A DNA stretch of 64,000 bases, taken from positions 543 to 64,542 of the forward strand of contig JANNYZ010000030.1 of the NCBI GenBank assembly GCA_031410335.1. Direction: 5' to 3'. The position numbers and the translations under genes were made by a program. The notes beneath the pieces were generated by a model. It made no database searches and was not told where the DNA came from. It saw nothing but the letters and a program-made list of their open reading frames with translations. The DNA is from Polaromonas sp. Lineage in GTDB: Bacteria > Pseudomonadota > Gammaproteobacteria > Burkholderiales > Burkholderiaceae_C. Positions within the stretch are counted from its first letter, which is position 1; every line of letters starts with the position of its first letter. This document shows positions 3-43,293 of this stretch, piece after piece.

Positions 3-242
3 GAAGCGCAGCAGTTCCTGGACTTTTTAAACGACTGGACGCGCCTGACCACGCTGCTCAATGAAATGTCGCGCAGCATGGGGCAGCCTGATTTTTACCC
101 GTTTGTGTTGCCACGCGTGGTGGTGGCCAAGCTGCACTTCATTCATTTGCTGGTCACATCGGGTGGCAGCCCACCGCCAGCAACTGCCGAACTGGATGCG
201 GTGCAGGCGCAGACTCAGAGTCAACTTCAAATCGCTATTTAA
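3..242 (+). CDS. 3' end of a putative zinc-binding metallopeptidase (DUF2248/Peptidase_Mx-like), truncated by the window start
   Basis: Hand translation of frame 3 (absent from the ORF track): ...WTRLTTLLNEMSRSMGQPDFYPFVLPRVVVAKLHFIHLLV...QIAI*. LN-x-x-RSMG-x-x-D-x-YPFVL...KL-x-FIH is the C-terminal signature I recall for this family. Confidence 0.65.
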   Translation, partial: EAQQFLDFLNDWTRLTTLLNEMSRSMGQPDFYPFVLPRVVVAKLHFIHLLVTSGGSPPPATAELDAVQAQTQSQLQIAI

Positions 243-287
243 TCAATAGCTGCTCACGCACGTATCTATTGGCTTGGAGCCATAAAT
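234..287 (+). repeat. Dispersed ~55-bp repeat, copy 1
   Basis: GCTAT-TTAATCA-ATAGC head followed by TGCTCACGCACGTATCTATTGGCTTGGAGCC. Shares an exact 19-mer (GCACGTATCTATTGGCTTG) with the copy at 30.75-30.80 kb. Confidence 0.8.
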
Positions 288-294
288 AAGCATT

Positions 295-310
295 AAAAAG
301 GCCTTTTTTT
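295..310. terminator. Possible bidirectional intrinsic terminator between convergent genes
   Basis: Perfect palindrome AAAAAGGCCTTTTT (295-308) with A and T tracts; the GC stem is very short. Confidence 0.3.
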
Positions 311-380
311 CTCAAAATAAAGGCTCAAAACAAGCTGTCAAGGCTCCGGTGAGACGGCCATCGCCAGTTCTGCAAGCGTT

Positions 381-2909
381 TCAAACCGTTTCCAGTTCGC
401 CCTGAATATCAGCTTGCTGCACAGAGTCTTGTGCTGAAAGGTGTTGCGCCGTAGCACTGAGCGTTACCGCATCCAGCGCCTGCGCCACCACGCCCTGGGT
501 ATCCACAGGCCGGAGCAGCCGCTGCGCAATCAGTTTTTCGCAGCTGCGTTTGGTCATTGAATGGGGTCGCCCGCCATGGCTGATGAACATGAACAGCGTG
601 CCATGGCTGCTGGCCCACACCAGCTGGGCGCGCAGCCACTGGCGTTTGGAATACAAGTCCACCCAGCGGCCTGTTCGCAGGCTTTGCAAGACAAGCGAGG
701 CCTGCTCTTTGGCGTCAGGCGCGTTGTGGTCGAGTGTTAGTAATTCGGGCGTTGGTTCAAGCTCCGCTTCGGCGTCCCGGTTTTCCTCAACTGTCCGGTC
801 ATCCATCAGCTCGTCGCTGCCCAGCTCGGCAGGTGCCGTCGGCTGCGTGTCTTCAAAGCCCGCAGCGTCGAGGTCATTGCGGCCCATCCACAACGGCGCG
901 TCTCCTTTAGCGCGCAGTTTCTCCAGCCGCTCGGCGGGGCTGACGGGTGCTTCTTCGGGTTCCAGCAGCGCTGCGCTTGATTCTTGAGCGTCGCGCTGGC
1001 TTTTGAGCCGCCTCAGCTTGAGCACCGGGCGGTGCAGTTTCATCAGGGATTCAAAAAATGCTTCGTTCTCTTTCGGGTCCTGGCCCAGCAACGCCAAGCC
1101 GCTGTGCAGCTTGTCCAGCAGGCCAGGAATCATCTCAATCAGTTTGGCAGGCTGCTTGAGGGTTACGTCGCGTTTGACGCTCCACACCAAATCAGGCACC
1201 ACCGAGCCATAGCCCTCGGGGTCAATCTGGTTGCGGGTGTCCGTCAGCCGGGCGTGGGCCATGGCCAGTGCCCAGGGGCCAAACAAAAAGTCCAGCACCC
1301 TGCCGGGTACTTTTTCCAGGTCAGACCGGGCGCTCAGGTCAAACGCAATCTGGTCCGCTGTGCTTTGGCGCTCTTCTGCAAAACGCAGCGCCTGCAAGAC
1401 CTGCTGGCGTCTTTCAAAGTCCTGCTGGTCTTGCGTAGCCCAGGTTTGCTCCAGCGCGGCCAGCGCCATGCCGAAAGGCTGAATGTCGTCAATCGCGCTG
1501 GCATTGAGCTGCTTGAAGCTGCTGCTGATGTCCTGAAAAAACGCGGCGAATTCAGGGCTGAACTCGTCGTTGTATTTGAAGCTGCGCTGAGCCACCCGCT
1601 CCATTAACTGGCGGCCTGCATGACGATCGTCGCTAAAAAAGCGTGGGTCGACCAGCGCCAGCCGCAGCAGCGACGGTTCCAGTGCCACGATGGCCTCACG
1701 CACCGGCGCCAACAGGCGTGGGTCTTGCGCCACCTGGTTAACAAGCTGGCGCACCACGTCCAGACCCAGCGCCTGACTGACTTTGGTGGCTTCTTTTTTG
1801 AGCTGTGTGCGTACCAGGCTGCGTGCACGTGATGTGCCGTACGGGCCCCACACCTGTTCGCTCAAGGGCGTGGACGCATCGACTGCGCGCTGCGGCCTGT
1901 CCACCGCAGGGATGCGCGCCAGCCGTTCCTGCGCGGCGGCTGAAAAGGGCGCGGCGCTGGACGCAGGTGCGGCTTTCAGGTCGGCCAGTTCCTGCTCAAT
2001 GTTGTCATAGTAGGGCGCAGCCAGGGCAGGGTCCGGGCGTTGGTGATGACCGCGAAAGTCAGGTGACAAAAAGTCCTGCAAAAGCCGCGCTTTGAGATGC
2101 TCGTCCGACAGGTCAGACTCAATGTATGGTGGCTTCGCTGATGCGTTGCCCGCGCTGCCCATGACCAGGTCACCAGGCCTGTCGGTCAGCTGATGAGACT
2201 GGCTGAAGTCTGATTTGGGGGCTGTTTTGGGCGCTACAGCCTGCACGCGAAACTGGTAGCCGGCCGAGCGAATCTGGGCCTGCTTCAGGGTCTGGGTGCA
2301 TTGGCGATAAATTTTGTCCAGTTCCTCGCCCAATGGCTTTGCCAGCAGGCCAAACGACAAACTGGTGGCTGCGTTGTCTTCCACAGTGACTGTCATCAGG
2401 CCTTGCAGGAGGCGGGCCATCACAGCAGGCCTCAGAGGATTGCGCTCAGGGGCTACATAGCCCAAGCCCATGGCCGAGCAAACCAGCGGATCGAGTTCGG
2501 CCAGAGCCTGCTCCACCACGGGCATCAGGTCTTGCAGCAGGCGCTGGCCGCGAATCACCTGAGTCATGTCGTCTTCAGCGACCAGACCTACCGCATCCAT
2601 CTTGAAACGGCCTGAGACTGCGGGCCGCGCAGGCAGCACTTGACGGTCGGCTGCATTGGCCTCTTTTGAAATCGCCTGGTTCAGTTCTGCCAGCAGGCTC
2701 TCGGCAAAGCGGGCGGGCCATTCGGTTTTGCGGGCATCGAGGTAGCGCCAGCTGTTGCCAAGCGCATCACGTTCGTTCACCTGCATGCAGCGTATTTCGC
2801 TGGTTTGCAGCTCTGCAATGGCACGCACCATGCAGCGCTCGAGTGCCGGCCGGGCTGCGCTGGCGGCGTCCTGAAAGCATTGCAGTAGCAGGTCGGGGTG
2901 TGCGGTCAT
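381..2909 (-). CDS. DUF1631 family protein
   Basis: 842-aa largely helical ORF: LAELDPLV...NPLRP, IVALEPSLLRLALVDPRFFSD-x-x-HAGRQL, and C-terminal GRWVDL...AQLVWAS-x-x-GTLFMF typical of DUF1631. Confidence 0.8.
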   Translation of the reverse strand: MTAHPDLLLQCFQDAASAARPALERCMVRAIAELQTSEIRCMQVNERDALGNSWRYLDARKTEWPARFAESLLAELNQAISKEANAADRQVLPARPAVSGRFKMDAVGLVAEDDMTQVIRGQRLLQDLMPVVEQALAELDPLVCSAMGLGYVAPERNPLRPAVMARLLQGLMTVTVEDNAATSLSFGLLAKPLGEELDKIYRQCTQTLKQAQIRSAGYQFRVQAVAPKTAPKSDFSQSHQLTDRPGDLVMGSAGNASAKPPYIESDLSDEHLKARLLQDFLSPDFRGHHQRPDPALAAPYYDNIEQELADLKAAPASSAAPFSAAAQERLARIPAVDRPQRAVDASTPLSEQVWGPYGTSRARSLVRTQLKKEATKVSQALGLDVVRQLVNQVAQDPRLLAPVREAIVALEPSLLRLALVDPRFFSDDRHAGRQLMERVAQRSFKYNDEFSPEFAAFFQDISSSFKQLNASAIDDIQPFGMALAALEQTWATQDQQDFERRQQVLQALRFAEERQSTADQIAFDLSARSDLEKVPGRVLDFLFGPWALAMAHARLTDTRNQIDPEGYGSVVPDLVWSVKRDVTLKQPAKLIEMIPGLLDKLHSGLALLGQDPKENEAFFESLMKLHRPVLKLRRLKSQRDAQESSAALLEPEEAPVSPAERLEKLRAKGDAPLWMGRNDLDAAGFEDTQPTAPAELGSDELMDDRTVEENRDAEAELEPTPELLTLDHNAPDAKEQASLVLQSLRTGRWVDLYSKRQWLRAQLVWASSHGTLFMFISHGGRPHSMTKRSCEKLIAQRLLRPVDTQGVVAQALDAVTLSATAQHLSAQDSVQQADIQGELETV

Positions 2910-3021
2910 GAGGGGCGAACGTCGGTTGTCGGCTATCTAGAGTAGCGAGCAATGATGCAAAACCGCCCATCTTCTGCAAACTCTTTCAACGCTTGCGATT
3001 GCACACACTTTTTATGGGACC

Positions 3022-3558: not shown

Positions 3559-3564
3559 TTCGTC

Positions 3565-6499: not shown

Positions 6500-7921
6500 T
6501 CAGTGCATGGCATCTCTTAACCGCGCAAACACCTTCCAGAACGCCGCATCCTGGGTGGTGGCAAAGTTGATCCGCATCAATGTTCCGGGCTGCTGGGTAC
6601 TGTGAAACAAGGCACCGGGCGCCAGCAAATAGCCCTCGTCCAGCATGCGCTGGGCCAGCGCCTCGGTGTCGGTTCCCGTATCAACCCAGCCGAAAAGACC
6701 TGCGGGTTCTGCGGCAAAGGTGCAGCCGTGCGCCAGCGCCAGCCGGGCCGACCGGGCCCTGGCAACGTCCAGCCGGTTGCGAATTCGCTCTGCGTGGCGG
6801 CGCAACTGGCCTTGGTCAATACACCAGGCCAGTGCTTTTTCAAGCAACGCGGGCGTGGTCAGCGAGGCTAGCAGTTTGGTGTCGAGCAGGCGCTCAAACA
6901 GATGGGTGGGCGCGGCGATGTAGCCTACCCGCCAGCCAGGCGCCAGTATTTTGGCGAAACCGCTGACGTAAATCGTGCGCTGCAGACCGTCCAGCGCGCA
7001 CAGACGGGTGGCGTGCTCGGCCGCCAGGTGGCTGTAGGTGTCGTCTTCCAGAATATGAAAGTCATGCAGGGCGGCCAGCTGAAGCACACGGTGGGCGCTG
7101 CCGGGGGTGAGGCAATAGCCGGTGGGGTTGTGCAGCACGCTGACGCTGACAAACAGCTTGGGCGCATGCAGTTTGCAGTAGCTCGCCATCACGTCGAGGT
7201 CAGGCCCGGCAGCAGTGCGCGGCACCGGCAAAATGCGCATGCCCAGTGCATTGAGCCGCGCAAATTCAATCGCCCAGCCCGGCTCTTCCACCATCACGAA
7301 GTCGCCAGCGCGCAGCAGGGTGCGGCTGACAATGTCCAGCGCATGGGTGGCGCCGACGGTGGTGATGATCTGCTCGGGCGCGGCGTGAATGTTCAGGGCA
7401 TCCAGCTTTTTTGACAAGGCGCGGCGCAGGCCGCTGTCGCCCGCAGGCTCGCCATAGTGCAGCGACAGGTCATGAAGTGCCTTGGCGCCGGTGTAACGCC
7501 GCACGGCAGAGGCTAAAAACGTGGTCTGCAGCCAGTCGGACGGAAACACGCCCATGCCGGGCTGCGGCTTGGTACTGACACCATGAAACATGCCGCGAAT
7601 AAGCGCCGTGGCGTTGATGGGGTTGTGCTGGGGCGGGGAGTTGTCTGCTATTGAATCAGGAGCTGGTCGCGCATGATTTTGTTGGTCTGCAGCTATATTT
7701 CGCACATAAAAACCACGGTTTTTGCGGGCTTCAACAAGGCCTTGAGCCAGCAACTGGTCATAGGCGGCCACCACGGTGGATGCGCTCACGCCCTGCTGCT
7801 CGGCGCATTGGCGTACTGATGGCAGGCGCGCGCCGCTGGCCAGCAGCCTGCTTTTGATGCGTTCGGCAAAGCGGTTGGCCAGTTGCTCGGTCAGCGACTG
7901 GGAGGCGGTTCTCATTAGCAT
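6500..7921 (-). CDS. MocR/GabR-type GntR regulator (wHTH plus PLP aminotransferase-like domain)
   Basis: RLPSVRQCA...VSASTVVAAYDQL wHTH; LHNPTG, EDDTY, SGFAKILAPGWRVGY. Confidence 0.95.
   Translation of the reverse strand: MLMRTASQSLTEQLANRFAERIKSRLLASGARLPSVRQCAEQQGVSASTVVAAYDQLLAQGLVEARKNRGFYVRNIAADQQNHARPAPDSIADNSPPQHNPINATALIRGMFHGVSTKPQPGMGVFPSDWLQTTFLASAVRRYTGAKALHDLSLHYGEPAGDSGLRRALSKKLDALNIHAAPEQIITTVGATHALDIVSRTLLRAGDFVMVEEPGWAIEFARLNALGMRILPVPRTAAGPDLDVMASYCKLHAPKLFVSVSVLHNPTGYCLTPGSAHRVLQLAALHDFHILEDDTYSHLAAEHATRLCALDGLQRTIYVSGFAKILAPGWRVGYIAAPTHLFERLLDTKLLASLTTPALLEKALAWCIDQGQLRRHAERIRNRLDVARARSARLALAHGCTFAAEPAGLFGWVDTGTDTEALAQRMLDEGYLLAPGALFHSTQQPGTLMRINFATTQDAAFWKVFARLRDAMH
7647..7698 (+). 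repeat. Dispersed repeat, copy 2, inside the MocR interdomain linker (antisense to the gene)
   Basis: GCTAT-TGAATCA-GGAGC-TGGTCGCGCATGATTTTGTTGGTCTGCAGC matches the repeat consensus. Confidence 0.65.
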
Positions 7922-10825: not shown

Positions 10826-11740
10826 ATGCAGCAACGCCCCTTCAAACAAATCGACGTTTTCACGTCCACCCCCTACCTTGGCAACCCTGTTGCCGTGGTG
10901 TTGGCAGGCGACGGTCTGAGCGACACGGAGATGGCCAGCTTTGCCCGCTGGACAAATCTGTCTGAAACGACTTTTGTACTGCCGCCCGTCAACACATCGG
11001 CCGACTACCGCCTGCGCATCTTCACGCCGGGCAGTGAATTGCCCTTTGCCGGCCACCCTACGCTGGGTAGTTGCCATGCCTGGCTGGAGGCAGGCGGGCG
11101 GCCCCGAAACAAAGACTTCATCGTGCAGCAGTGCGCGAAAGGCCTGGTCAAAATTCGCCGCGATGGGACGGGCAAGCGCCTGGCATTTGCAGCCCCTGAA
11201 TTGAGCCGTGCTGCCCCCAGTCCGGTGGTGCTGGCCCAGGTTGCGGCAGCGCTTGGCATCAAGGCAGCGCAGGTGACAGCGGCTCAGTTGCTGGACAACG
11301 GTCCGGTGTGGCTGGGCTTGCTGCTGGACAGCCCCGAGACGGTTTTGCAAATCACGCCCAATCACCAAGAACTGGCCAAACTGGGAGTCAAGGTGGGTGT
11401 GGCAGGCGTTTATCCGGTGGATGCAGCAGCGCCCCTGATTGCCAGGGCCAACCGGGAGGCCAGGGCTTTTGCGCAGGACAAGCCTGACATCATCCCCAAT
11501 CTGGAAGTTCGGGCCTTTGCGGCCAGCATCGGCATCAACGAAGACCCTGTGACTGGCAGCCTGAACGCCAGTCTGGCGCAATGGCTGATGGCTGATGGTG
11601 TCATGCCAGCGCAGTACACCGCCGCGCAGGGCGTATGCCTCAGACGCGCGGGACAAATTGACTTACAGCGCGACGCAGATGGGCAAGTATGGGTCGGTGG
11701 GCAGTCGGTGACGTGCATCGACGGGACAGTAACGCTGTGA
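10826..11740 (+). CDS. PhzF-family epimerase/isomerase
   Basis: Start at ATG 10826; QIDVFT...GNPVAVV, NLSETTF, ELPFAGHPTLG, EDPVTGSLNA. Confidence 0.92.
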   Translation: MQQRPFKQIDVFTSTPYLGNPVAVVLAGDGLSDTEMASFARWTNLSETTFVLPPVNTSADYRLRIFTPGSELPFAGHPTLGSCHAWLEAGGRPRNKDFIVQQCAKGLVKIRRDGTGKRLAFAAPELSRAAPSPVVLAQVAAALGIKAAQVTAAQLLDNGPVWLGLLLDSPETVLQITPNHQELAKLGVKVGVAGVYPVDAAAPLIARANREARAFAQDKPDIIPNLEVRAFAASIGINEDPVTGSLNASLAQWLMADGVMPAQYTAAQGVCLRRAGQIDLQRDADGQVWVGGQSVTCIDGTVTL

Positions 11741-12423
11741 CAGCGCACGTCGATCACCTGGTCGTCGCCGCCAGCACGCTTGACGAAGGCGTGGCCTGGT
11801 GCGAGCAAACGCTGGGCATCACCCCCGGCCCTGGTGGTGAACACCCGCTGATGGGGTCGCACAACCGGCTTTTTAAAATTGCATCAGCCCAGTACCCAAG
11901 CACCTATTTCGAAATCATTGCTATTGATAAAGGAGCTGCTTGTGCGCGTAAAAACGCCGAGAAGCGCTGGTTTGATCTTGACAGTGAGGCACTGCAACAG
12001 CAGTTGAAGCGATGCGGGCCGCAACTGGTTCATTTTGTCGCCAGCACGCTGCGTGCTGCACCTGCCCTGCAAGCGCTGGCTGCACTAGGCATAGGCCGCG
12101 GCGAGCTACTAGAGGCATCGCGCATGACACCGCACGGCATGCTGTCCTGGAAGATCACCGTGCGCGCAGACGGTCAGCGGCTGATGAACGGTACGCTGCC
12201 CACGTTGATCGAGTGGGCGGGCGTGCACCCCACAGGCAACATGCCCGCCAGCGGCATCACCCTGCAATCGTTGGCGGCAAGCCAGCCCGATGCAAAAACC
12301 TTACAAGCCGCTTATGCCGCCATTGGCCTGCAAGGCGTGTCGGTCAGCCAGGGGCCAGCCAACTTGATAGCCACCCTGCAAACGCCACGCGGCGTGGTCA
12401 CGCTCGAATCCAGAGGCGTCTGA
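11737..12423 (+). CDS. VOC/glyoxalase-like domain protein
   Basis: GTG start in a GTGA overlap; DHLVVAA, GGEHPLMGSHNRL, EIIAID, RWFDLD, PTLIEW. Confidence 0.85.
   Translation: MTAHVDHLVVAASTLDEGVAWCEQTLGITPGPGGEHPLMGSHNRLFKIASAQYPSTYFEIIAIDKGAACARKNAEKRWFDLDSEALQQQLKRCGPQLVHFVASTLRAAPALQALAALGIGRGELLEASRMTPHGMLSWKITVRADGQRLMNGTLPTLIEWAGVHPTGNMPASGITLQSLAASQPDAKTLQAAYAAIGLQGVSVSQGPANLIATLQTPRGVVTLESRGV
11920..11970 (+). repeat. Dispersed repeat, copy 3 (degenerate, in-frame within the VOC gene)
   Basis: GCTAT-TGATAAA-GGAGC-TGCTTGTGCGCG, read as AIDKGAACAR. Confidence 0.55.
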
Positions 12424-16154: not shown

Positions 16155-18314
16155 ATGAATTTTCGCCTTTTAAAAAACGCTCTGCTTTTTATAGCTGCTT
16201 GCGCACATATTCATTGGGCTACAGCCCAAATTAATCCCTTAAATGCGCCTCCAAAGGCTGCTAGCAGTGTTGTTGCAACGGACCAGGTGCGTGCCGAGCT
16301 GATGGCCTTCGCCCCCGACGGCGTGGGGCCAGGAAAACAGATTTGGCTGGGCTTGCAACTGGCACACCAGCCAGATTGGCACACTTACTGGAAGAATTCG
16401 GGCGATTCTGGCTTGCCCACAGTGCTTGAATTCAAACTGCCTGCGGGCATTGACCCCGGCGAGATTGCATGGCCGACGCCTAAAAAAATTCCCATTGGGA
16501 CGCTGGCCAACTATGGCTACGAGGGCACGGTGCTGCTGCCTGTGCCGCTGACGGTTGCGCAAAACTTCAACGCGGGGCAGCTCGACATCAAGCTCAAAGC
16601 CGCCTGGCTGGTGTGCAAAAAAGAATGTATTCCGCAAGAAGGCGACTTTGCCCTGAGTATTCCCGCCAAAAGCTCAACGGCCATCAACGCTGCCGTTTTT
16701 CAGGCGGCGTTTGATGCCAGCCCCAAAGCTCTGAAGACAAGTGCCAGCCAGATTGAAGTCGCTGGGAACACGATCAAAGTGTCATTGAGCGATTTGCCTG
16801 GCACCATGACCGGAAAGACCTTGGCGTTTTTCCCGGAAACAGGCAATGTGATCGAGCCCGCCGCGAAGTGGACGCAAAGCTGGCAGGGCAATGTGTGGAC
16901 TGCTCAAGTTCCGCTATCAGGCCAGCGCACTGAAAGCCCCACCGTCATGCCGGTCGTCGTGGCACTGGACAAAATCGCATACCGGATTGAAGCGCCTGTC
17001 AAAGGGGAATGGCCCAAAGTCGCGGCAGCCGCCCAAGTGCCGCCAGCGCTGGAGGCCGCTTTAAAAGCCAACGCCACCAGCGGTGCAGCGCCGATTCAGG
17101 CAGCCGCTACATCGCTGACTTTCTGGGCCGCTTTACTGGGCGCCTTCATCGGAGGCATGATTTTGAACCTGATGCCCTGCGTGTTTCCCGTGCTGGCCAT
17201 CAAGGTGGTGAGCTTTGTGAACGTCAAAGACCAACGCACCCGGGTTGCCACCGGGGTGGCCTACACCGCCGGTGTCACGCTGTCATTTTTAGCCTTGGGC
17301 GCACTACTGCTGGGCCTGCGCGCGGCGGGCGAGCAACTCGGCTGGGGCTTTCAATTGCAAAGCCCTGGGGTCGTGGCTGGGCTGGCCGTGCTGTTCACTC
17401 TGCTGGGTTTGAACCTGGCGGGCTTGTTTGAGTTTGGCAACTTTTTGCCCAGTCGCGTAGCCAGTTTGCAGGCCAGGAACCCGACAGTTGATTCGTTTTT
17501 ATCAGGCGTGCTGGCCACGGCTATTGCATCGCCCTGCACCGCGCCGTTTATGGGTGCATCGCTGGGCTATGCGGTCGGTTTGCCTGCGGTGCAGGCGCTC
17601 GCCGTGTTTGCGGCGATCGGCCTGGGCATGGCGCTGCCGTACCTTGCTGCCAGCGCCGTGCCGGCCATTGCACGGACCCTGCCGCGCCCTGGCGCGTGGA
17701 TGGTGACGTTCAAGCAGCTGATGGCTTTCCCGATGTTTGCCACGGTCGTCTGGCTGGTCTGGGTGCTCGGCCAGCAAAGCGGTATTGATGGTGCGGGCGC
17801 GCTGCTGGGCTTGCTGGTGCTGATGGCTTTGGCCATTTGGGCTTTGACCTTGAAGGGCCGTACGCGAACTGTAATTGCTACATTTTCAATATCAGCTCTC
17901 GCCGGTGGAATATGGTCTGTAGGGCCAAACATTACCAAATTACAGGACATTGGCACGCCTTCTTTTCAGTTAGCGAACGGCTGGCAAGCCTGGGAGCCGG
18001 GCCGTGTAGACCAGCTCACGTCAGCAGGTCAAAGCGTGTTCGTTGACTTCACGGCTGCTTGGTGCGTGACCTGCCAGTACAACAAGAAGACCACCCTGAG
18101 CAATGCGTCTGTACTGGCCGATATTGCCGCCAAAAAAGTGGTTTTGTTGCGCGCCGACTGGACACGCCGTGACCCTGCCGTGACCGCCGCCCTGACGCAA
18201 CTGGGTCGCAGTGGCGTGCCGGTGTATGTGATTTACAAGCCGGGCCGTGCGCCTGTCGTTTTGAGTGAGATTTTGTCTGTGGATGATGTCAGGGCTGAAC
18301 TGGCCAAACTTTAA
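16155..18314 (+). CDS. DsbD/ScsB-type membrane electron transporter
   Basis: Start at ATG 16155; WHTYWKNSGDSG and CKKEC N-domain; MPCVFP and SPCTAPFM membrane cysteines; C-terminal thioredoxin WCVTC. Confidence 0.9.
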   Translation: MNFRLLKNALLFIAACAHIHWATAQINPLNAPPKAASSVVATDQVRAELMAFAPDGVGPGKQIWLGLQLAHQPDWHTYWKNSGDSGLPTVLEFKLPAGIDPGEIAWPTPKKIPIGTLANYGYEGTVLLPVPLTVAQNFNAGQLDIKLKAAWLVCKKECIPQEGDFALSIPAKSSTAINAAVFQAAFDASPKALKTSASQIEVAGNTIKVSLSDLPGTMTGKTLAFFPETGNVIEPAAKWTQSWQGNVWTAQVPLSGQRTESPTVMPVVVALDKIAYRIEAPVKGEWPKVAAAAQVPPALEAALKANATSGAAPIQAAATSLTFWAALLGAFIGGMILNLMPCVFPVLAIKVVSFVNVKDQRTRVATGVAYTAGVTLSFLALGALLLGLRAAGEQLGWGFQLQSPGVVAGLAVLFTLLGLNLAGLFEFGNFLPSRVASLQARNPTVDSFLSGVLATAIASPCTAPFMGASLGYAVGLPAVQALAVFAAIGLGMALPYLAASAVPAIARTLPRPGAWMVTFKQLMAFPMFATVVWLVWVLGQQSGIDGAGALLGLLVLMALAIWALTLKGRTRTVIATFSISALAGGIWSVGPNITKLQDIGTPSFQLANGWQAWEPGRVDQLTSAGQSVFVDFTAAWCVTCQYNKKTTLSNASVLADIAAKKVVLLRADWTRRDPAVTAALTQLGRSGVPVYVIYKPGRAPVVLSEILSVDDVRAELAKL
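16179..16232 (+). repeat. Dispersed repeat, copy 4, encoding the DsbD signal peptide core
   Basis: GCTCT-GCTTTTT-ATAGC-TGCTTGCGCACATATTCATTGGGCTACAGCCCAAA = ALLFIAACAHIHWATAQ. Confidence 0.75.
17877..17931 (+). repeat. Dispersed repeat, copy 5 (degenerate), encoding a DsbD membrane segment
   Basis: By hand count, 35 of 55 positions match the 27281 copy without gaps; same reading frame (ATFSISALAGGIWSVGPN). Confidence 0.45.
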
Positions 18315-21726: not shown

Positions 21727-23826
21727 ATGACCCATTGGCTAAGCGTTGTGGTGGCGACGCCTGCCCACAGTGCGGTTGCGGGGCCTCTGACCTACAGAAG
21801 TGAGTTGCCACTTGCCCCCGGCACTTTGGTGCGCGTACCCCTGGGCCGGCGTGAAGTACTGGGCGTGGTCTGGGAAAGCGCTGCCGACAGTGGCGGCCTG
21901 CTGGAAATGCAGACCAAAAACGTCGCGGGTGTGCTCGACGGCCTGGCGCCACTAAACGCGAACTGGCGGGCACTGGTCAGCTTTACAGCCAGTTACTACC
22001 AGCGCTCTTTGGGTGAAGTGGCGCTGGCCGCGCTGCCGCCGCAGTTGCGGGAACTGACCGGCCTACAACTCGCCAGGCGTTTGAAACGCCCTGTTCTAGA
22101 CACCAGCCACGCGCCGGGCGCGACTGACCTCATCGCGCTAAGCGCACAACAACAAACGGCCCTGACCGGATTCGAGGCTGAAAACAGCGAAAAAAAGCGA
22201 CCCGCACTGCTGTTTGGCGCCACAGGCAGCGGCAAAACCGAGGTGTATCTGCGTCTGGCGGCCCAAGTACTGGCGCAAGATTCGTCAGCGCAGGTCTTGG
22301 TGATGGTGCCCGAGATCAACCTCACACCGCAGCTGGAAGCGCGCTTTGCAGAGCGCTTTGCCCACCTAGGTAGCGAACGCGTGGTGGCGCTACACAGCGG
22401 CCTCACGCCCGCCCAGCGCCTGAAAAGTTGGTTGGCCGCCCATTCAGGCAACGCCCGTTTGATCTTGGGTACCCGCATGGCTGTGCTGGCGTCCATGCCC
22501 AGCCTCAAACTGATCGTGGTCGATGAAGAGCACGACCCCAGCTACAAGCAGCAGGAAGGCGCACGCTATTCAGCACGTGACCTGGCGGTGTACCGCGCCA
22601 GCATTCACGATGATTGTCGGGTGCTGCTGGGTTCAGCCACGCCGTCTCTGGAGAGTTGGCAGGCGACGATCAGCGGCAAGTACCAGCTCTTGAAAATGGA
22701 TGAGCGGATTGGCTCAGGCATTGACTCCGGCGGTTTGCCAACAGTCCGGGGTGTCGACATGAACCACCAGCCCAAGCACTGCGTGATTGCCCCGCCGCTG
22801 GTCAAAGCCATTGAAGAACGCATCGATAGAGGCGAGCAGTCGCTGATTTTTCTCAACCGCCGCGGCTATGCCCCCGTGCTGGCTTGCCAAGACTGCGGCT
22901 GGAAGAGTGAATGCCCGCATTGCAGCGCCTACCGCGTGTTTCACAAAATCGACCGCACCCTGCGCTGCCACCACTGCGGCTTTACCGAGCGCGTGCCGCG
23001 CGCCTGCCCTGCCTGCGGCAATATCGACATTGCACCTGTGGGCCGTGGAACGGAACGACTGGAAGAACACCTGGCCGAGTTGCTGGCTAACGTCAAGCGA
23101 CCCGACGGCAGCCCCGTGTGCATCGCGCGGATTGATGCCGACAGCACCCGATTAAAAGGCGCCCTGCAATCACAGCTGGCCAGCGTGCATGCTGGCGAGG
23201 TCGATGTGCTGGTCGGTACCCAGATGATCGCCAAGGGCCACGACTTCAGGCACATCACGCTGGTGGCCGCCATCAACCCCGACGGGGCGCTTTTTTCAAG
23301 CGACTTTCGGGCGCCTGAGCGTTTGTTCAGCCTCTTGATGCAAGCCGGTGGTCGGGCCGGCCGCGATGCCGCCCGCAGCGGCGCAAGTGAAATGTGGGTA
23401 CAAACCTTTCACCCCACACATCCGCTGTTTGCAGCGCTTAAAACGCACGACTACCGAAAATTTGCCGCCCAGCAACTGGAAGAACGCCAAGCCGCAGGCT
23501 TGTCACCGTTCGGCTTTTCAGCATTGATCCGCGCCGAAGCCAAAGCACAGGACGTGGCGCAGGGCTTTTTAAACGCAGCGATAGCCGCAGCGTTGGCGGC
23601 TGAGCTGGAAGGCCACAATCACATCACCGCCTACCCGGCAGTCCCCATGACCATCCAGCGAGTCGCCAACATCGAGCGCGCACAAATGCTGGTGGAAAGC
23701 GCATCACGCACTGCCTTGCAACGCTTTTTAGCCGCGTGGCAGCCCGTGCTGTTCGAGACGCGAAAGCAGGGCGACTTCAAGAGCCTGATTCGCTGGGCGA
23801 TTGATGTGGATCCACTGGCGATTTGA
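21727..23826 (+). CDS. priA: Primosomal protein N'
   Basis: GATGSGKTEVY, VPEINLTPQL, DEEHD, two CxxC pairs of the Zn region, GTQMIAKGHDF. Confidence 0.97.
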   Translation: MTHWLSVVVATPAHSAVAGPLTYRSELPLAPGTLVRVPLGRREVLGVVWESAADSGGLLEMQTKNVAGVLDGLAPLNANWRALVSFTASYYQRSLGEVALAALPPQLRELTGLQLARRLKRPVLDTSHAPGATDLIALSAQQQTALTGFEAENSEKKRPALLFGATGSGKTEVYLRLAAQVLAQDSSAQVLVMVPEINLTPQLEARFAERFAHLGSERVVALHSGLTPAQRLKSWLAAHSGNARLILGTRMAVLASMPSLKLIVVDEEHDPSYKQQEGARYSARDLAVYRASIHDDCRVLLGSATPSLESWQATISGKYQLLKMDERIGSGIDSGGLPTVRGVDMNHQPKHCVIAPPLVKAIEERIDRGEQSLIFLNRRGYAPVLACQDCGWKSECPHCSAYRVFHKIDRTLRCHHCGFTERVPRACPACGNIDIAPVGRGTERLEEHLAELLANVKRPDGSPVCIARIDADSTRLKGALQSQLASVHAGEVDVLVGTQMIAKGHDFRHITLVAAINPDGALFSSDFRAPERLFSLLMQAGGRAGRDAARSGASEMWVQTFHPTHPLFAALKTHDYRKFAAQQLEERQAAGLSPFGFSALIRAEAKAQDVAQGFLNAAIAAALAAELEGHNHITAYPAVPMTIQRVANIERAQMLVESASRTALQRFLAAWQPVLFETRKQGDFKSLIRWAIDVDPLAI

Positions 23827-24804: not shown

Positions 24805-24840
24805 GTGGAAAAAGCGGTGATTTGGGTAATTTGTTGTAAC

Positions 24841-24894
24841 GCTATCAAATAAATAGCTGCTCGCGCACGATTTTATTCGTCTGAAGGCCTAAAA
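24841..24894 (+). repeat. Dispersed repeat, copy 6 (intergenic)
   Basis: GCTAT-CAAATAA-ATAGC-TGCTCGCGCACGATTTTATTCGTCTGAAGGCCTAAAA. Confidence 0.8.
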
Positions 24895-25112
24895 CAGGGG
24901 TGAAAAGACCAGTTTTCGGGCTTTTTGGCGCGTTCAGGGCCTGCCAGGCTTGTTTCAGGCGCTCCTACACGGTCGCCAGACCGTCATTTGTGTCTGGTGT
25001 CAGTGACAGCAACCCATGGGCAGCACCAACTGCCCGTTATGATTTGAAGCCAGCCCTTATGAATCTTTCTGCAGCGTCCCCGCCAGAACCCACTCCCGAA
25101 TCGACTCCCTGA

Positions 25113-27251
25113 ATGCTTGAACCCCTGGCCGACGGCCTGAACTTGGCCCAGCAAGAAGCTGTTAACTATTTTGAAGGCCCTTGCCTCGTGCTGGCTGGTG
25201 CTGGGTCAGGCAAAACGCGGGTGATCACCCACAAGATTGGGCGACTGATTCAGTCGGGCCTGAAGGCTGAGCAGATCGCGGCCATCACCTTTACCAACAA
25301 AGCCGCTGCCGAGATGCGGGAGCGGGCCAAAAAACTGATTGGCCGGCCCGCCAAGGGCGTACTGATTTGCACTTTTCACTCGCTGGGCATGCGCATGCTC
25401 CGGCAAGACGGCGAGGTGCTGGGTTTAAAGAAGCAGTTTTCGATTCTGGACACCGACGACGTGACCAGCATCATCAAGGACGCGGGTGGCGGCACCGATG
25501 CAGCCACCGCGCGGCAGTGGCAGTGGACGATCAGTCGCTGGAAGAACATGGGGCTCAATTCATCACAGGCCGCAAGCATTGCCAGCGGTGAAGAAGAAGC
25601 GCTGACCGCCCGCATCATGGCGCGCTATGAAGAGCGCTTGACGGCCTACCAGAGCGTGGACTTTGACGACTTGATTGGCTTGCCGCTCAAGCTGCTGAAA
25701 GAGCACGATGCGGTGCGTACCAAGTGGCAGGAATCGTTGGGTCATGTGCTGGTCGATGAATACCAGGACACCAACGCCACCCAGTACGAGGTGCTGAAGT
25801 GTTTGGTGGGCGAACGCGGCCGATTCACCGCTGTGGGTGACGATGACCAGTCGATCTACGGCTGGCGCGGTGCCACGCTGGACAACCTGAAAAAACTGCC
25901 GGTGGACTACCCGAATTTGAAAGTGGTGAAGCTGGAGCAAAACTACCGCTCGACCAGCGCTATTTTGCGTGCCGCCAACAACGTGATTGGCCCCAACCCC
26001 AAGCTCTTTTCTAAAACGTTGTTTAGCGAGCTGGGTGAAGGCGAGCCGGTGCGGGTGGTGGATTGCGACAGCGAAGAACACGAAGCCAGCCGCGTGGTGG
26101 CGCGTATCCAGAGCCTGCGGGCTGAGGGCACGCTGCAAGCCGCAGGCGGCCAATACCGCGAATGGAAAGACTTTTGCGTGTTGTACCGCGCCAACCACAT
26201 GGCCAAGCCGTTTGAAAAAGCTTTTCGCAAAGCCAACATCCCGTACAAGGTGTCGGGCGGGCAAAGCTTTTTTGACCGGGCCGAGATCAAGGACCTGTGC
26301 TGCTGGCTGCGCCTGCTGGCCAACAACGACGACGACCCGGCCTTCATGCGCGCCGTGACCACGCCCAAGCGCGGCATTGGCCACACCACGCTGGGCACGC
26401 TAGGCACCTTTGCCAGCCAGTACAAACTCAGTTTGTTTGAAGCGCTGTTCAGCCACTCGCTCAGCTCGGTGCTGCCTGCCAAGGCGCTGGCGTCGCTCAA
26501 TGAGTTTGGCCGCTACCTGAACGACCTGGAATACCGCGCCAAACGCACGGTGGGAGCAGAGGATGCGCTGGTGTTTTTAAAAGACTGGCTGAAAGAAATC
26601 GACTACGAAAAGAATCTGTACGACGGCGAAGACAGCGAAAAAATAGCCGCCGCCAAATGGACCAACGTGATGGACTTTTGCGAATGGATGGCGCAGCGCT
26701 GTGGTGGGCAGGACGATGATGAAGCTGTGGGCGCTGTGATGGCCAAACCAACCAAGACCATGCTCGAAGTCGTGCAAAGCATCGCGCTGCTGTCAACCCT
26801 GAGCGAACGCGAAGGCGACCAGAACGTGGTGACCCTGTCTACCCTGCACGCCGCCAAGGGGCTGGAGTGGCCGCATGTGGTGCTGGCGGGCGTCAACGAA
26901 GGCTTGCTGCCCTTCAAGATGGACGACGACGATGGCAACAATACGGACGACATCGCCCTGCGCCTGCAGGAAGAGCGCCGTCTGATGTACGTTGGCATCA
27001 CGCGCGCGCAACGTACCCTCAGCGTGAACTGGCTGCGCCGCCGCAAAAAAGGCCGCGACACAATTGCCGGATTGCCCAGCCGGTTCATTGCCGAGATGGC
27101 GCTCAATAAGGACACGGTGCGTGAAGACCCGCGCGAAAAAATCAAGGCGTTGCGGGCTGAATTTGCGCAGCGTGCGCTGGATGCCGCCGCTGCCCAAGCG
27201 ACGACCCAAGCTGCGACGCTGGAGACAGCGCATGGTCCTGCTTGGGAATGA
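25113..27251 (+). CDS. rep: ATP-dependent DNA helicase Rep (UvrD/Rep family)
   Basis: AGAGSGKTRVI, TFTNKAA, VDEYQDTN, VGDDDQSIYGWRGA, LEQNYRS, EERRLMYVGITRA; located near priA. Confidence 0.9.
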   Translation: MLEPLADGLNLAQQEAVNYFEGPCLVLAGAGSGKTRVITHKIGRLIQSGLKAEQIAAITFTNKAAAEMRERAKKLIGRPAKGVLICTFHSLGMRMLRQDGEVLGLKKQFSILDTDDVTSIIKDAGGGTDAATARQWQWTISRWKNMGLNSSQAASIASGEEEALTARIMARYEERLTAYQSVDFDDLIGLPLKLLKEHDAVRTKWQESLGHVLVDEYQDTNATQYEVLKCLVGERGRFTAVGDDDQSIYGWRGATLDNLKKLPVDYPNLKVVKLEQNYRSTSAILRAANNVIGPNPKLFSKTLFSELGEGEPVRVVDCDSEEHEASRVVARIQSLRAEGTLQAAGGQYREWKDFCVLYRANHMAKPFEKAFRKANIPYKVSGGQSFFDRAEIKDLCCWLRLLANNDDDPAFMRAVTTPKRGIGHTTLGTLGTFASQYKLSLFEALFSHSLSSVLPAKALASLNEFGRYLNDLEYRAKRTVGAEDALVFLKDWLKEIDYEKNLYDGEDSEKIAAAKWTNVMDFCEWMAQRCGGQDDDEAVGAVMAKPTKTMLEVVQSIALLSTLSEREGDQNVVTLSTLHAAKGLEWPHVVLAGVNEGLLPFKMDDDDGNNTDDIALRLQEERRLMYVGITRAQRTLSVNWLRRRKKGRDTIAGLPSRFIAEMALNKDTVREDPREKIKALRAEFAQRALDAAAAQATTQAATLETAHGPAWE

Positions 27252-27754
27252 CCATGAAGCGCCAGACATTCAAATCAATTGCTATATTGTTAATAGCTGC
27301 TAGCGCACATATAAATTGGGCTAGAGCTCAAAACAACCTCCAAAACCAGCTCAAACCAGCCTGTCCGGCGCCCAAAACCGTCAAAGCGCAGCAGCTCTAT
27401 GGTGTTTGGCAAGTCACCTTCACTGACCCGCCTGCTGGAATGCCCGCCAGGGCCGTCATGCTGCTGGAAAAGCATGAAGAATTTGCCGACAGCCTGGCGG
27501 GCATCGTCAGCCGTGACCCGGTCACGGCCACCGGTCATGCCGCCAAGGCCGCCTTGGCAGGTGATGTCGACGACGGCTTTGTGATTCTGGACGAGTCCAG
27601 CGACAACATCAGCATTTCTGGCACCTGGAACGGCGAGCTGGTGCAAAGCAGTTGTGGCCGTGAAGTCAAAGGCGTGTGGAAAGACACCAGTGCCACTGCA
27701 TTGCCTGATGCGCCCGATGTGCCGTTCACCATGGTCAAGCGTCCGGGCTGGTAA
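27248..27754 (+). CDS. Hypothetical exported protein
   Basis: ATGA overlap with the rep stop; signal peptide ending ARA|Q; beta-rich domain (LYGVWQV...ISGTWNG). Confidence 0.7.
   Translation: MTMKRQTFKSIAILLIAASAHINWARAQNNLQNQLKPACPAPKTVKAQQLYGVWQVTFTDPPAGMPARAVMLLEKHEEFADSLAGIVSRDPVTATGHAAKAALAGDVDDGFVILDESSDNISISGTWNGELVQSSCGREVKGVWKDTSATALPDAPDVPFTMVKRPGW
27281..27335 (+). repeat. Dispersed repeat, copy 7, encoding a signal peptide core
   Basis: GCTAT-ATTGTTA-ATAGC-TGCTAGCGCACATATAAATTGGGCTAGAGCTCAAAA = AILLIAASAHINWARAQ. Confidence 0.8.
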
Positions 27755-30749: not shown

Positions 30750-30803
30750 GTTTCGTGTTTCAAGCCAATAGATACGTGCACTAGTAGCTCCTGAATAAAT
30801 AGC
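30750..30803 (-). repeat. Dispersed repeat, copy 8 (intergenic, between convergent genes)
   Basis: Reverse complement: GCTAT-TTATTCA-GGAGC-TACTAGTGCACGTATCTATTGGCTTGAAA. Confidence 0.8.
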
Positions 30804-30820
30804 GTCTGAATTTGCTAAAT

Positions 30821-40186: not shown

Positions 40187-40233
40187 GATTCAAACTCCAT
40201 TCAGGTTAAAAAACACACAAGGAAATCCAGACA

Positions 40234-41010: not shown

Positions 41011-41014
41011 ATTT

Positions 41015-42211
41015 TTAAACGACTCCGTTTGAATGAAACTGTTCAATGTCAGTTTCAGAATAACCGGCTTCAGCCAACACCTCGTCGGTGTGTTGTCCCC
41101 AACCTGGTGCCTGCGCCACCACTGTTGCCGGGGTGCGCTGTAGCACCACTGGCTGGTTGATGTAGTGCATTTCCTTGCCGAAGTCAGTTACCAAGGATGT
41201 CGTCACACCCAGGTGCTGAACCTGCTCGTCTTCAAACACCTGGGGTACGGTGTACACCGGACCGGCGGGGACGCCTGCATCGTTGAGCAATTTGACCCAA
41301 TGCTGCACGCTTTGGGTTTTGAAAATATCAGCCAGCAGGGGGGTGAGCCTCTCACGGTGCTTGACGCGCAGTGGCTCGGTTTTAAACTCTTCGTCGTTCA
41401 ACCACTCAGGGCGATACAGCAGCTTGCACAAGCGGATCCAATTGCCTTCGCCCGATGCGCCGAGGTTAAACACGCCGTCGGCTGCTTCAAACAAACCCAT
41501 CGGGCTGCTGGTCGGGTGGTCGTTGCCGACTTGTATCGGCAAGTCGTTGTCGTTCAAATAGCGCGCCATCTGGAAATCCATCATGGCGATTTGGGAATGG
41601 AGCAGCGACGCATGCACCCACTGGCCCTTGCCGGAGACTTCGCGCTCCAGTAGAGCCGTCAAAATACCCAGCGCGGCATACAGACCAGCGCTCATGTCAG
41701 CCACTGCCAGCCCGGCGCGTACCGGGCCATGGCCGGGCAAACCTGTCACGGACATCAGCCCGCCCATGCCCTGCACGATCTGGTCGAAGCCGGGGCGACC
41801 CGCCAGCGGGCCATCCTGGCCAAAGCCTGAAATACTGGCCAAAATAATCCGTGGATTCACAGCCGCCAAAGATTCGTAGTCAATGCCGAGCTTGGTTTTG
41901 ACATCGGGCCGCCAGTTTTCAACCAGCACATCGGCGTCTTTCACCAGGCGCATCAACACATCACGCGCGCCTGGTTTTTTCAGGTTGAGCGTCATCGACC
42001 GCTTGTTGCGGTTGATGTTCTGAAAGTCTCCGCCCTCGCGGTTGGCGGCAAACATGGCTTCGTTTGGATCAATGCCGGGGGGTGGCTCGATGCGAATCAC
42101 GTCGGCACCAAAGTCAGTCAGCATGCGCACGCAATTGGGGCCAGCGCGCACGCGGGACAAGTCAAGGACGCGAAACCTGGCCAGCGCGCTGGAAGCCTGA
42201 ATTTTGGGCAT
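41015..42211 (-). CDS. Class III (CaiB/BaiF) CoA transferase
   Basis: RVLDLSR, FGADVIRIE, NRNKRS, ENWRP, SGFGQDGP, catalytic-type D in VADMSAG. Confidence 0.93.
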   Translation of the reverse strand: MPKIQASSALARFRVLDLSRVRAGPNCVRMLTDFGADVIRIEPPPGIDPNEAMFAANREGGDFQNINRNKRSMTLNLKKPGARDVLMRLVKDADVLVENWRPDVKTKLGIDYESLAAVNPRIILASISGFGQDGPLAGRPGFDQIVQGMGGLMSVTGLPGHGPVRAGLAVADMSAGLYAALGILTALLEREVSGKGQWVHASLLHSQIAMMDFQMARYLNDNDLPIQVGNDHPTSSPMGLFEAADGVFNLGASGEGNWIRLCKLLYRPEWLNDEEFKTEPLRVKHRERLTPLLADIFKTQSVQHWVKLLNDAGVPAGPVYTVPQVFEDEQVQHLGVTTSLVTDFGKEMHYINQPVVLQRTPATVVAQAPGWGQHTDEVLAEAGYSETDIEQFHSNGVV

Positions 42212-42224
42212 GTTTAGGATTTAC

Positions 42225-42259
42225 GTATATTTATTAAAATGTTATAAATATAAATATAC
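42225..42259. promoter_or_regulatory. AT-rich palindromic candidate GntR operator
   Basis: TATATTTAT (42226-42234)-N9-ATAAATATA (42244-42252) is a perfect inverted repeat in the 88-bp divergent intergenic region. Confidence 0.5.
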
Positions 42260-42299
42260 AGCAATAAAAGATACATGGCAACATGAGAAACTCGCATCC

Positions 42300-43040
42300 A
42301 TGAAACCCGCCAAAAAGCCTGTGACTCGCGCCAAAACAGCCAAAGCCATCAAGCCTGCGACTGCTGACGCCAAGTTCACCAAGGCCAGCGACAAGATACG
42401 CCTGGACATTGAAACCGCCATCAAAGACGGCGCACTGCTGCCAGGCGACCCGATTGACGAAGCCCAGCTGGCCAGCCAGTACAAGGTGTCACGCACGCCG
42501 ATACGGGAGGCATTGATCCAGTTACAAGCCCAGGGCATGCTGACCAGCTTGCCACGCGGCGGTATGGTAGTGGCCAAGATGGACTTGCAGCAGCTGCTGC
42601 AACTATGGGAGCTGCTGGCCGAGCTCGAAGGCGTAGCGGTGCGCCTGGCGTGCCAGCGCATGAGCACCGAGGAGCGCGAAGCCATCGCCCAGCACCATGC
42701 CAAAAGTCGCGCTGTGGCCGAGGCCGACGACATGGCGGGCTGGCAACAAAGCAACCTGCAGTTTCACGAGCTGATTTACCGCGCCTGCCGAAACCCCTAC
42801 CTGCGCCAGGAGGTGCTGCGCATGCGGGCCCGCACTGGCTACTACCGCCGCCACGCCTTTGGCGCGCTGGGTCAGGTCAAGGCCTCATTCGAGCAGCATA
42901 CCCAGATCGTCGACGCTTTCAACAAAAGCGATGGCGAAGCAGCCGCCCAAGCCATGCTGGCCCACATGCGCCCAGCCAGTGATGCCAAGGGGTTGACAGA
43001 CTTTATTGTGAATTTGCCGAAGGAACTGCTGGCACGGTGA
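42300..43040 (+). CDS. GntR family regulator with FCD domain
   Basis: Start at ATG 42300; LASQYKVSRTPIREAL wHTH; NLQFHELIY...NPYL; EHTQI-like FCD motif. Confidence 0.93.
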   Translation: MKPAKKPVTRAKTAKAIKPATADAKFTKASDKIRLDIETAIKDGALLPGDPIDEAQLASQYKVSRTPIREALIQLQAQGMLTSLPRGGMVVAKMDLQQLLQLWELLAELEGVAVRLACQRMSTEEREAIAQHHAKSRAVAEADDMAGWQQSNLQFHELIYRACRNPYLRQEVLRMRARTGYYRRHAFGALGQVKASFEQHTQIVDAFNKSDGEAAAQAMLAHMRPASDAKGLTDFIVNLPKELLAR

Positions 43041-43048
43041 TGCTTATT

Positions 43049-43102
43049 GCTCTTATTTTAAGAGCTGCTACCGCATGTATCCATTGGTCTGGAGGCTTAT
43101 TT
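43049..43102 (+). repeat. Dispersed repeat, copy 9
   Basis: GCTCT-TATTTTA-AGAGC (compensatory variant of the head), then TGCTACCGCATGTATCCATTGGTCTGGAGGC. Confidence 0.78.
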
Positions 43103-43293
43103 GGCAGCTAAAAATGGCCTAAAAACCTCCGTAAATCGCGCAAAGTGCCAAAAAGTGCCGCTAAACCATGCCTGACATGGCTTAAAACCGACAAAAAAAA
43201 GCTACTACTGAGTTGGGAAATAGACGCGTTGGTATTTATGTGGCAATATTTGGGGGTTAGTTTTTAAACCCCACTATCGATAACGAGATCAAC

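Follow-up and report, generated by a model that had tools for sequence, protein, structure and literature searches.

The repeat family and its copies in the window

We analysed a short dispersed DNA repeat in a 64,000-bp stretch (hereafter, the window) of Polaromonas sp. (GenBank assembly GCA_031410335.1, contig JANNYZ010000030.1, positions 543 to 64,542). The window belongs to a Polaromonas-like organism, which occurs in freshwater-sediment metagenomes. An earlier reading based on the letters of the window (hereafter, the sequence-only reading) had listed ten sites with the palindromic head GCTAT-N7-ATAGC or a variant of it. These sites were interpreted as a nonautonomous mobile element with a conserved hairpin, similar to repetitive extragenic palindromes (REPs) or to MITEs (miniature inverted-repeat transposable elements).

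The ten listed sites were read and aligned, and they share a common unit. A profile hidden Markov model (HMM) was built from the listed copies and used for an nhmmer search of the window (window HMM), and a second profile was built from 131 copies across genomes (family HMM). Eight of the ten sites were significant with the window HMM (E from 1.5e-15 to 1.2e-9, c11920 being the weakest), and the same eight were confirmed by the family HMM (Table 1). The repeat is thus a genuine dispersed family. The two remaining sites did not hold as significant copies: the site at 17877 is a decayed ortholog of copies in relatives (see below), and the site at 21480 is not a family member. In addition, the repeat is far more frequent than expected by chance: the head was observed 4 times in the window versus 0.03 expected, and a relaxed head pattern gave 15 strand-matches versus 0.59 expected. 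The first and eighth listed copies have the 19-mer GCACGTATCTATTGGCTTG in common, which also agrees with the earlier reading.

The unit is about 65 bp long, not about 55 bp as first read. In the 131-copy alignment, which is essentially ungapped, it runs TT-GCTAT-(AT-rich N7)-ATAGC-TGCTTGCGCA-N10-GGGCTAGAGGCC-nATTTgg-n4-AAA. Three palindromic modules are found in it, namely GCTAT-N7-ATAGC, TGCGCA, and GGGCT-NN-AGCCC. Copies that were not picked by the pattern used to scan reference genomes gave the same consensus, with an information content of about 52 bits over the ~65 bp.

Table 1. Sites of the repeat family in the window, with their genomic context and profile scores
Site	Positions	Strand	Context	E-value	Bits
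c234	231..296	+	intergenic, convergent genes	1.5e-15 (nhmmer)	43.4 (family HMM)
c7647	7645..7708	+	antisense within MocR-type (GntR + aminotransferase) regulator gene 6500-7921(-)		36.3
c11920	11917..11975	+	weak, degenerate; sense, within Glyoxalase_3 gene (11689-12423, Pfam)	1.2e-9 (window HMM)	20.2 (family HMM)
c16179	16176..16236	+	sense; DsbD signal peptide, gene 16155-18314		45.6
17877 site	17874..17935	+	decayed copy in DsbD transmembrane helix (VIATFSISALAGGIWSVGPN)	about 5, not significant	
21480 site	21480-21496		head only; within separately conserved hemE-priA intergenic block	about 3, not significant	
c24841	24839..24902	+	intergenic, divergent Mem_trans / rep helicase genes		43.9
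c27281	27278..27342	+	sense; signal peptide of small secreted protein, gene about 27248-27754		43.4
c30803	30752..30805	-	intergenic, convergent genes, 18 bp past stop of minus-strand Amdase-like gene	5.8e-14 (window HMM)	25.1 (family HMM)
c43049	43046..43110	+	intergenic, 9 bp past stop of GntR/FCD regulator gene (42204-43040, Pfam)		42.8

Five of the sites lie within genes (MocR-type, Glyoxalase_3, DsbD twice, and the small secreted protein), and one copy provides the stop codon of a gene; both observations had been made by the sequence-only reading. For the latter, the head loop of c234 contains TAA (240-242), which is the stop of the upstream Peptidase_Mx-like gene, and the same is seen in the ortholog of a related locus (L120). 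In the MocR-type regulator, c7647 encodes roughly residues 72-93 (..AP-DSIA..) of the linker between both Pfam domains. Meanwhile, c16179 codes for the hydrophobic core and the AxA cleavage site of the DsbD signal peptide (MNFRLLKNALLFIAACAHIHWATA/Q). For the Glyoxalase_3 copy, comparison with PDB gave no homolog. We also observed that the stop of the rep helicase gene overlaps the start of the small secreted-protein gene carrying c27281 (ATGA, 27248-27251). In the related locus L126, the gene caller skipped the N-terminus of this small protein and placed the start 24 codons downstream.

Substitution at orthologous sites

Syntenic loci of relatives (L120-L126) were fetched via the MocR and Rep orthologs. 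Five window sites were found at orthologous positions in relatives, including those in the MocR linker, the DsbD signal peptide, the DsbD helix, the Mem_trans/rep spacer, and the signal peptide of the small protein. Across relatives these sites score from about 4 to 50 bits and differ by substitutions. For instance, the MocR-linker copy is recognisable at the same site in three fetched orthologous loci (20 bits in L120, about 4 in L121, and 50 in L122), and 21 aligned MocR ortholog proteins keep a similar linker peptide. The copy in the DsbD signal peptide has 46 bits in the window, 45 bits in L121, and 17 bits in L123, and it is weak in L120 (about 10). For the small secreted protein, the signal peptides of the orthologs in L123-L126 carry the copy at 21-39 bits. 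The copy in the Mem_trans-rep spacer has 25 bits in L123 and 47 bits in L124; L125 has the head only, and the shorter spacer of L126 has no copy.

In four genomes, the score of the DsbD helix site varies between about 4 and 42 bits, and there is no indel between the window and L120. In relatives, the codons corresponding to 17877 score 42.4 bits (L124), 28.1 bits (L120), and 13.7 bits (L123). Because the window site occupies the same dsbD position as the L124 and L120 copies, we regard it as their decayed ortholog. The sequence-only reading had proposed a comparison of filled and empty orthologous sites, and this comparison gave graded substitution states instead of clean insertions. Furthermore, among close relatives (Rep about 96% identical), L120 and L123 score markedly lower than the window and L124 at several common sites. 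Judging from these scores, some sublineages may now maintain the motif less strongly.

Coding copies in other genes were compared with homologs of solved structure. The phzF gene of the more distant genome (L122) has a 40.6-bit copy, and in this region its alignment with three orthologs and with yeast YHI9 (PDB 1ym5) is gap-free. This copy overlaps the conserved residues GVA...LIAR and uses rare codons such as ATA, AGA, GTA, and TCT. Among the copies outside the scan pattern, the best one (57.6 bits) is in the purK gene of L079. It is gap-free against Burkholderia PurK (4izo), whose native helix already reads DAQQAAARIA at the motif, and NMPxAQxxRAQAATxxIA is kept at equal length in all 120 Polaromonas-type PurK orthologs. 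For PGI of L033, there was no insertion at the motif relative to 6bzb and 3hjb, and a single-residue gap lies nearby. No in-frame added peptide segment was found in PurK, PGI, or PhzF against their solved-structure homologs. These results show that, in the four tested coding copies (PhzF, PurK, PGI, and the DsbD helix), which were aligned with homologs that do not carry the motif, the motif arose by substitution and not by insertion.

Constraint on DNA and genome-level dialects

We used five purK orthologs with 78-90% protein identity to compare the 23 motif codons with the rest of the gene. The motif has 42-58 bits in these orthologs. The GC content at third codon positions (GC3) is 0.22-0.30 inside the motif versus 0.65-0.86 outside. 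In addition, the fraction of same codons at identical residues is 0.81 inside and 0.58 outside the motif (Fisher p=4e-9), and the amino-acid identity is 0.67 inside versus 0.83 outside. These results show that the constraint is on DNA rather than on protein. Furthermore, the purK copy is antisense, and the whole family is neutral in orientation (see below). Thus, the constraint acts on double-stranded DNA.

The same result decides whether the coding copies could be chance resemblance produced by common peptides, such as those of signal peptides and Ala-rich helices. Both the sense and the antisense translations are generic hydrophobic or Ala-rich peptides, and we estimated that the scan pattern could randomly match about 300 sites in 596 Gb. 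However, copies that the pattern had not selected reach 20-58 bits, and the coding copies use and conserve rare AT-ending codons where GC3 is otherwise 0.65-0.86. Moreover, among the matches listed, the repeat is confined to one bacterial family. Chance resemblance is effectively refuted by the synonymous sites of purK, and we consider it extremely improbable.

The 10-nt variable block of the repeat differs between genomes. Its identity is 0.50 within genomes versus 0.32 between genomes (permutation p<=0.002), whereas the flanking DNA shows no within-genome effect (0.26 vs 0.27). For example, ..ATT-GG(G/C/T)CT is the form in the window and in near relatives of it, and L122 has GACGG-GGGCT. The metagenome-assembled genome (MAG) GL74_DN has ACGC-TGGCT in 8/8 copies, and OS-4, R. 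bucti, and RYN_585 have GCGCT. At the MocR site, the window copy is 57% identical to its paralogs in the window and 36% identical to its L122 ortholog, and the L122 copy is 60% identical to the L122 paralogs.

Genomic position and orientation

Positions were counted for 191 copies, using crude gene calls on 1.08 Mb of fetched loci. Like the window copies, these lie in both coding and intergenic DNA, which confirms the sequence-only reading on this point: 125 are intergenic and 66 are in open reading frames (ORFs). Because start codons were over-called, 66 is an upper bound. The in-ORF copies comprise 35 sense and 31 antisense copies, and nearly all of them use two frames (+0 and -0 dominate), because the remaining frames run into the TAG of ATAGC. 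The sense frame reads A-I-x-x-I-A-A-C-A, and the antisense frame reads A-Q-A-A-I-x-x-I-A.

The intergenic copies lie 0-50 bp from stop codons. Convergent spacers have 36 copies versus 12 in divergent spacers, and the co-directional intergenic copies show no orientation preference (29 vs 27). The density is about one copy per 5-8 kb, with eight copies in the 64-kb window, and neither regular spacing nor promoter association of the copies was seen. A replication-strand bias, such as that of Chi or FtsK-orienting polar sequences (KOPS), was rejected by a GC-skew test (96 vs 93). In L126, we observed two convergent copies, 21822-21883(+) and 21992-22052(-), which fill one convergent intergenic spacer; each of them begins 23-43 bp past the stop of the gene that it follows.

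Secondary structure and dyads

The conserved hairpin of the sequence-only reading was not recovered. RNAalifold gave no consensus structure for the repeat copies (consensus energy -0.43 kcal/mol). Only one pair of the head stem varies freely: 99 copies have A-T there, 29 have a broken pair, and 3 have a compensated one, so the reading of GCTCT/AGAGC as a compensatory change lacks statistical support. In addition, the 5-bp head helix is 94.7% paired versus 94.0% in shuffled sequences, and mutual information is found between neighbouring columns only. Single-strand DNA folds of nine copies were no better than shuffles (z from -2.6 to +1.0). A search with Rfam 15 gave no match, either in the window with the gathering threshold or around c24841 with E<=1, and a tRNA scan gave no match. 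The head dyads look like conservation of sequence rather than of structure, and they are possibly protein dyads. Readings as promoter, sigma-54, IHF, Fis, or FNR-like sites, compared by eye only, fit no conserved positions.

These data bear on an RNA-level role, in which the repeat would stabilise 3' UTRs, be a small RNA, or serve as a terminator module. As such a role would predict, many intergenic copies begin 0-50 nt past stops, and A/T-flanked hairpins follow some of them. However, the copies show no orientation preference relative to genes, there is no consensus structure, covariation, or Rfam match, and the purK copy is conserved in antisense. We consider an RNA-level role very unlikely.

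The hemE-priA intergenic region (window 21341-21726) shows strong DNA-level conservation in L123-L125. The head-only palindrome GCTATCAAAGCCATAGC (21480-21496) is part of its conserved block, together with an AT-rich stretch and TTATCCACA (21611-21619), which is the sole perfect DnaA box in the window. This region may be regulatory or replication-related. This block also shows that stand-alone conservation of GCTAT-N7-ATAGC is possible.

Protein dyads would also suit a binding-site array for a chromosomal protein that is abundant and specific to the family, such as a factor for topology or condensation or a nucleoid-associated one. This array would be kept by per-site selection and bound by dimers on the three palindromic modules. 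The in-place, DNA-level, orientation-neutral, and dialect evidence fits such an array equally well, and so do dyad modules without hairpin covariation. Furthermore, the enrichment at gene 3' ends and in convergent spacers resembles that of the gyrase-binding sites in REPs and bacterial interspersed mosaic elements (BIMEs), and the head is conserved on its own in the hemE-priA block. However, about 52 bits are far beyond the need for a few hundred sites, and the copies show neither regular spacing nor promoter association. In addition, copies decay freely in close relatives (for the DsbD signal peptide, from 46 to 17 to about 10 bits), and this argues that per-site selection is weak. Thus, we regard a chromosomal-protein array as rather unlikely.

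Tests for a mobile element

The 131-copy alignment, which was not searched for target duplications, showed no terminal inverted repeats. The unit ends, 5' TTGCTAT and 3' ATTTGG..AAA, are not inverted repeats of each other, and the one dyad in the head is internal. Among the ~40 window ORFs tested against Pfam, neither a transposase nor a REP-associated tyrosine transposase (RAYT) was found, consistent with the earlier statement that the window has no transposase. In the fetched loci, inspection, which was not systematic, gave no inverted copy pairs flanking a small gene in a RAYT-like manner.

At a fixed BLAST threshold, the consensus was found at 1-3 places on only about 8 Comamonadaceae plasmids. 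For instance, there are two places on the 353-kb plasmid of Polaromonas naphthalenivorans CJ2 and one place on a 305-kb plasmid. The same BLAST gave 7 places in 210 kb of chromosomal loci, which had been chosen for synteny with the window. Thus, at equal threshold the density of the repeat is about 6-10 times lower on large plasmids of Comamonadaceae. A search of 50,697 phage records gave no match to the consensus. Meanwhile, isolated heads and cores of the repeat occur.

A selfish element of REP/REPIN or MITE type, served by a trans-acting and possibly domesticated enzyme, would be the closest to the sequence-only reading; here, gene conversion would yield the dialects and the substitution-like coding copies. 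The repeat is multi-copy, and the high information content of the whole 65-bp unit suggests templated copying. Genome-specific subfamilies, REP-like intergenic copies at gene ends, and an 18-residue gain at one copy in AcnA also favour a selfish element, and the isolated heads and cores could be its remnants. However, terminal inverted repeats are lacking in the alignment and there is no stable palindrome, up to a third of the copies are in ORFs, and four coding copies show no change in length. In addition, orthologous copies persist across genera, plasmids carry few copies and phages gave none, and no transposase was found in the window. The blocks of perfect identity among the copies are <=15 bp long, and blocks this short serve RecA-dependent conversion poorly. 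Taken together, a selfish element is unlikely, and the mobile-element interpretation of the earlier reading is not supported.

Spread across genomes and communities

A pattern scan of 185,579 reference genomes gave at least 119 stretches. Among the matches listed, nearly all are from Comamonadaceae or unnamed Burkholderiales MAGs, and the genera are Polaromonas, Rhodoferax, Curvibacter, Comamonas, Acidovorax, Variovorax, Simplicispira, Giesbergeria, Ottowia, and Aalborgicola. The window HMM detected 129 copies in 92 of the fetched pattern-scan loci. In a MAG labelled Asaia bogorensis (CALRUM02), three loci match the scan pattern (L019, L109, and L113), and two of them (L109 and L113) have clear HMM-supported Comamonadaceae repeat copies with 26-28 bits. 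This bin is probably mislabelled or contaminated.

In four sediment metagenomes, we observed dozens of contigs with unrelated flanks that stack on the repeat core at 16186-16227; these contigs are too short and too mixed to tell filled from empty alleles. The word depth at 16186-16227 is 1,640-2,700 versus roughly 2-970 in other bins. The contig pile-up indicates that the repeat family is very abundant in the sediment community.

The right part of the window (43939-64000) is a photosynthesis gene cluster, including bchF, genes for protochlorophyllide-reductase-like N/B subunits, bchH, bchL, bchM, two pucC/lhaA genes, and puhA. The cluster also has PAS/Fis-type regulators, and a HiPIP gene lies just upstream (43294-43611). 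No significant repeat copy was found in 43939-64000, which has one weak partial match at 53107-53146(-). This gap is only weakly informative, because the preceding 12 kb (30.8-43.0 kb) are also empty.

Comparison with known repeats and signals

In P. naphthalenivorans CJ2, a 2017 survey of spaced motifs counted 125 copies of ATAGCT(N)22CAAAAG, of which 101 are intergenic, 18 are in genes, and 34 are between convergent genes, and listed it without explanation as a 'potential novel motif' (PMC5217627). We consider this motif to be the present repeat family, because its single pattern instance in the fetched loci (L060, 1626) is a 38-bit subtype copy. In addition, the copy on the CJ2 plasmid displays the full unit. 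Thus, the family is not new as a listed motif, but it had never been characterised: the survey defined it by two hexamers, without the full unit, the family-wide spread, the substitution-type coding copies, and the DNA-level constraint (PMC5217627). The same survey gave a second unexplained motif, GCTTAT(N)5AAGCG, in Acidovorax ebreus TPSY (114 copies, 94% intergenic, many between convergent genes; PMC5217627). This motif may be an Acidovorax dialect or a sister family, and it has no instance in the fetched loci.

The Betaproteobacterial repeat element (BRE) is known from Bordetella and also from Polaromonas, Rhodoferax, Acidovorax, and Delftia, and some of its copies are in coding sequence (PMC3110155). 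Identity with BRE was rejected, since the BRE sequence is unrelated, about 90 bp long with about 69% GC, and forms tandem arrays (PMC3110155).

The repeat shares several features with REPs, BIMEs, and REPINs, which are also short dispersed repeats with a species-specific consensus, lie near gene 3' ends and in convergent spacers, and persist vertically. However, REPs are extragenic and stable imperfect palindromes, often in inverted doublets and with a cognate RAYT. The present repeat has no stable hairpin, occurs as single units with up to a third of them in ORFs, and has no RAYT in the window. Rickettsia palindromic elements (RPEs) and MITEs such as Correia/NEMIS and ERIC are also small repeats, and they can sit in-frame in genes and be translated. 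Unlike the present repeat, they are insertions that add residues and have inverted-repeat structure, whereas the PurK, PGI, PhzF, and DsbD copies add no residues and overlap conserved residues. HIP1 of cyanobacteria is an 8-bp palindrome that is abundant in coding and non-coding DNA and is kept by a non-transpositional process. The present repeat is likewise a DNA-level motif in coding and non-coding DNA, but it is composite and 65 bp long.

The uptake signal sequences (USS) of Pasteurellaceae and the DNA uptake sequences (DUS) of Neisseriaceae resemble the repeat in more respects. They are over-represented, orientation-neutral, and without replication-strand bias, are family-wide with lineage dialects, and are scarce in foreign DNA. 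Their coding-region behaviour was described by Findlay and Redfield (PMC2817400): they are enriched at gene ends, yet frequent within genes, where they use particular frames and weakly constrained residues. In addition, they originate by substitution without indels, as the tested coding copies do.

Interpretation

Four findings favour a DNA-level signal that a directional, lineage-specific process keeps in place, and they speak against a transposable element: the origin of copies in genes by substitution, the constraint at synonymous sites, the neutrality in orientation, and the genome-wide dialects, which extend to at least one orthologous site. Thus, we consider it likely that the repeat is a DNA-level signal maintained in place, and not an insertion element or an RNA. 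For the mechanism, we tentatively put forward molecular drive of the kind known for USS/DUS, whose behaviour is the closest known, and we hold it as a possibility with somewhat less than even chances.

Under this proposal, the repeat would be a double-stranded-DNA recognition signal of about 65 bp, specific to Comamonadaceae. Within genes, copies would arise and persist by base substitution in existing sequence wherever this is tolerated. Such tolerance would be found at the ends of genes and in short spacers, in signal peptides and membrane helices (in sense), and in alanine-rich helices or linkers (in antisense). A lineage-specific directional force would keep the copies near the genome-wide dialect. 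A DNA-handling apparatus, most likely for uptake and recombination, would prefer motif-bearing DNA, and better-matching alleles would then spread by recombination. We infer that the directional force is biased uptake or recombination and that a protein recognises the motif.

Several points weigh against these views. First, the present motif is about 65 bp long with 52 bits, in contrast to the 9-12 bp core with weak flanks of USS/DUS, and its density is about 5-8 times lower (1 per 5-8 kb vs about 1 per kb). About 52 bits are much more than needed for a few hundred sites and more naturally suggest templated copying; such an excess would point to a composite multi-protein site or to templated homogenisation. 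Second, 18 extra residues are present where a copy lies in the linker between AcnA domains 3 and 4 (L004), so some copies may be insertions. Third, the intergenic comparisons (downstream of the Na+/H+ exchanger gene and in the Mem_trans-rep spacer) showed either a break in gene order or spacers that differ by far more than one unit. Fourth, it is suggestive that the orthologous MocR copies follow the local dialect, and this comes from a single locus. Finally, nothing was found in the searchable literature on sequence-specific DNA uptake, natural competence, or a dedicated receptor for the Comamonadaceae genera.

The embedding of the motif in housekeeping genes against their codon usage is unusual. 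The motif overrides codon usage in essential genes, and it shapes signal peptides and protein linkers. For annotation, the AT-rich 65-bp islands in GC-rich genes resemble insertions but, where tested, are none, and they would mislead the annotation of repeats, MITEs, and horizontal transfer. Meanwhile, the motif is usable as a simple family-specific marker with genome-level dialects, and it flagged the MAG labelled Asaia.

It is doubtful, on present evidence, that Comamonadaceae carry a genomic signal for uptake or self-recognition, which would make them the third bacterial lineage of this kind. Such a signal would be unusually long and composite, written by molecular drive into housekeeping genes, gene ends, and signal peptides, and with genus-level dialects. 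If this were true, bacteria that are abundant in freshwater and soil would have an undiscovered system that takes up or recombines DNA in a sequence-specific manner. Polaromonas, Rhodoferax, and relatives of theirs, which are major environmental bacteria, would have an unknown sequence-specific DNA system if the signal served to mark self DNA for its uptake, for recombination, or for the handling of chromosomes, and this would bear on gene flow among them.

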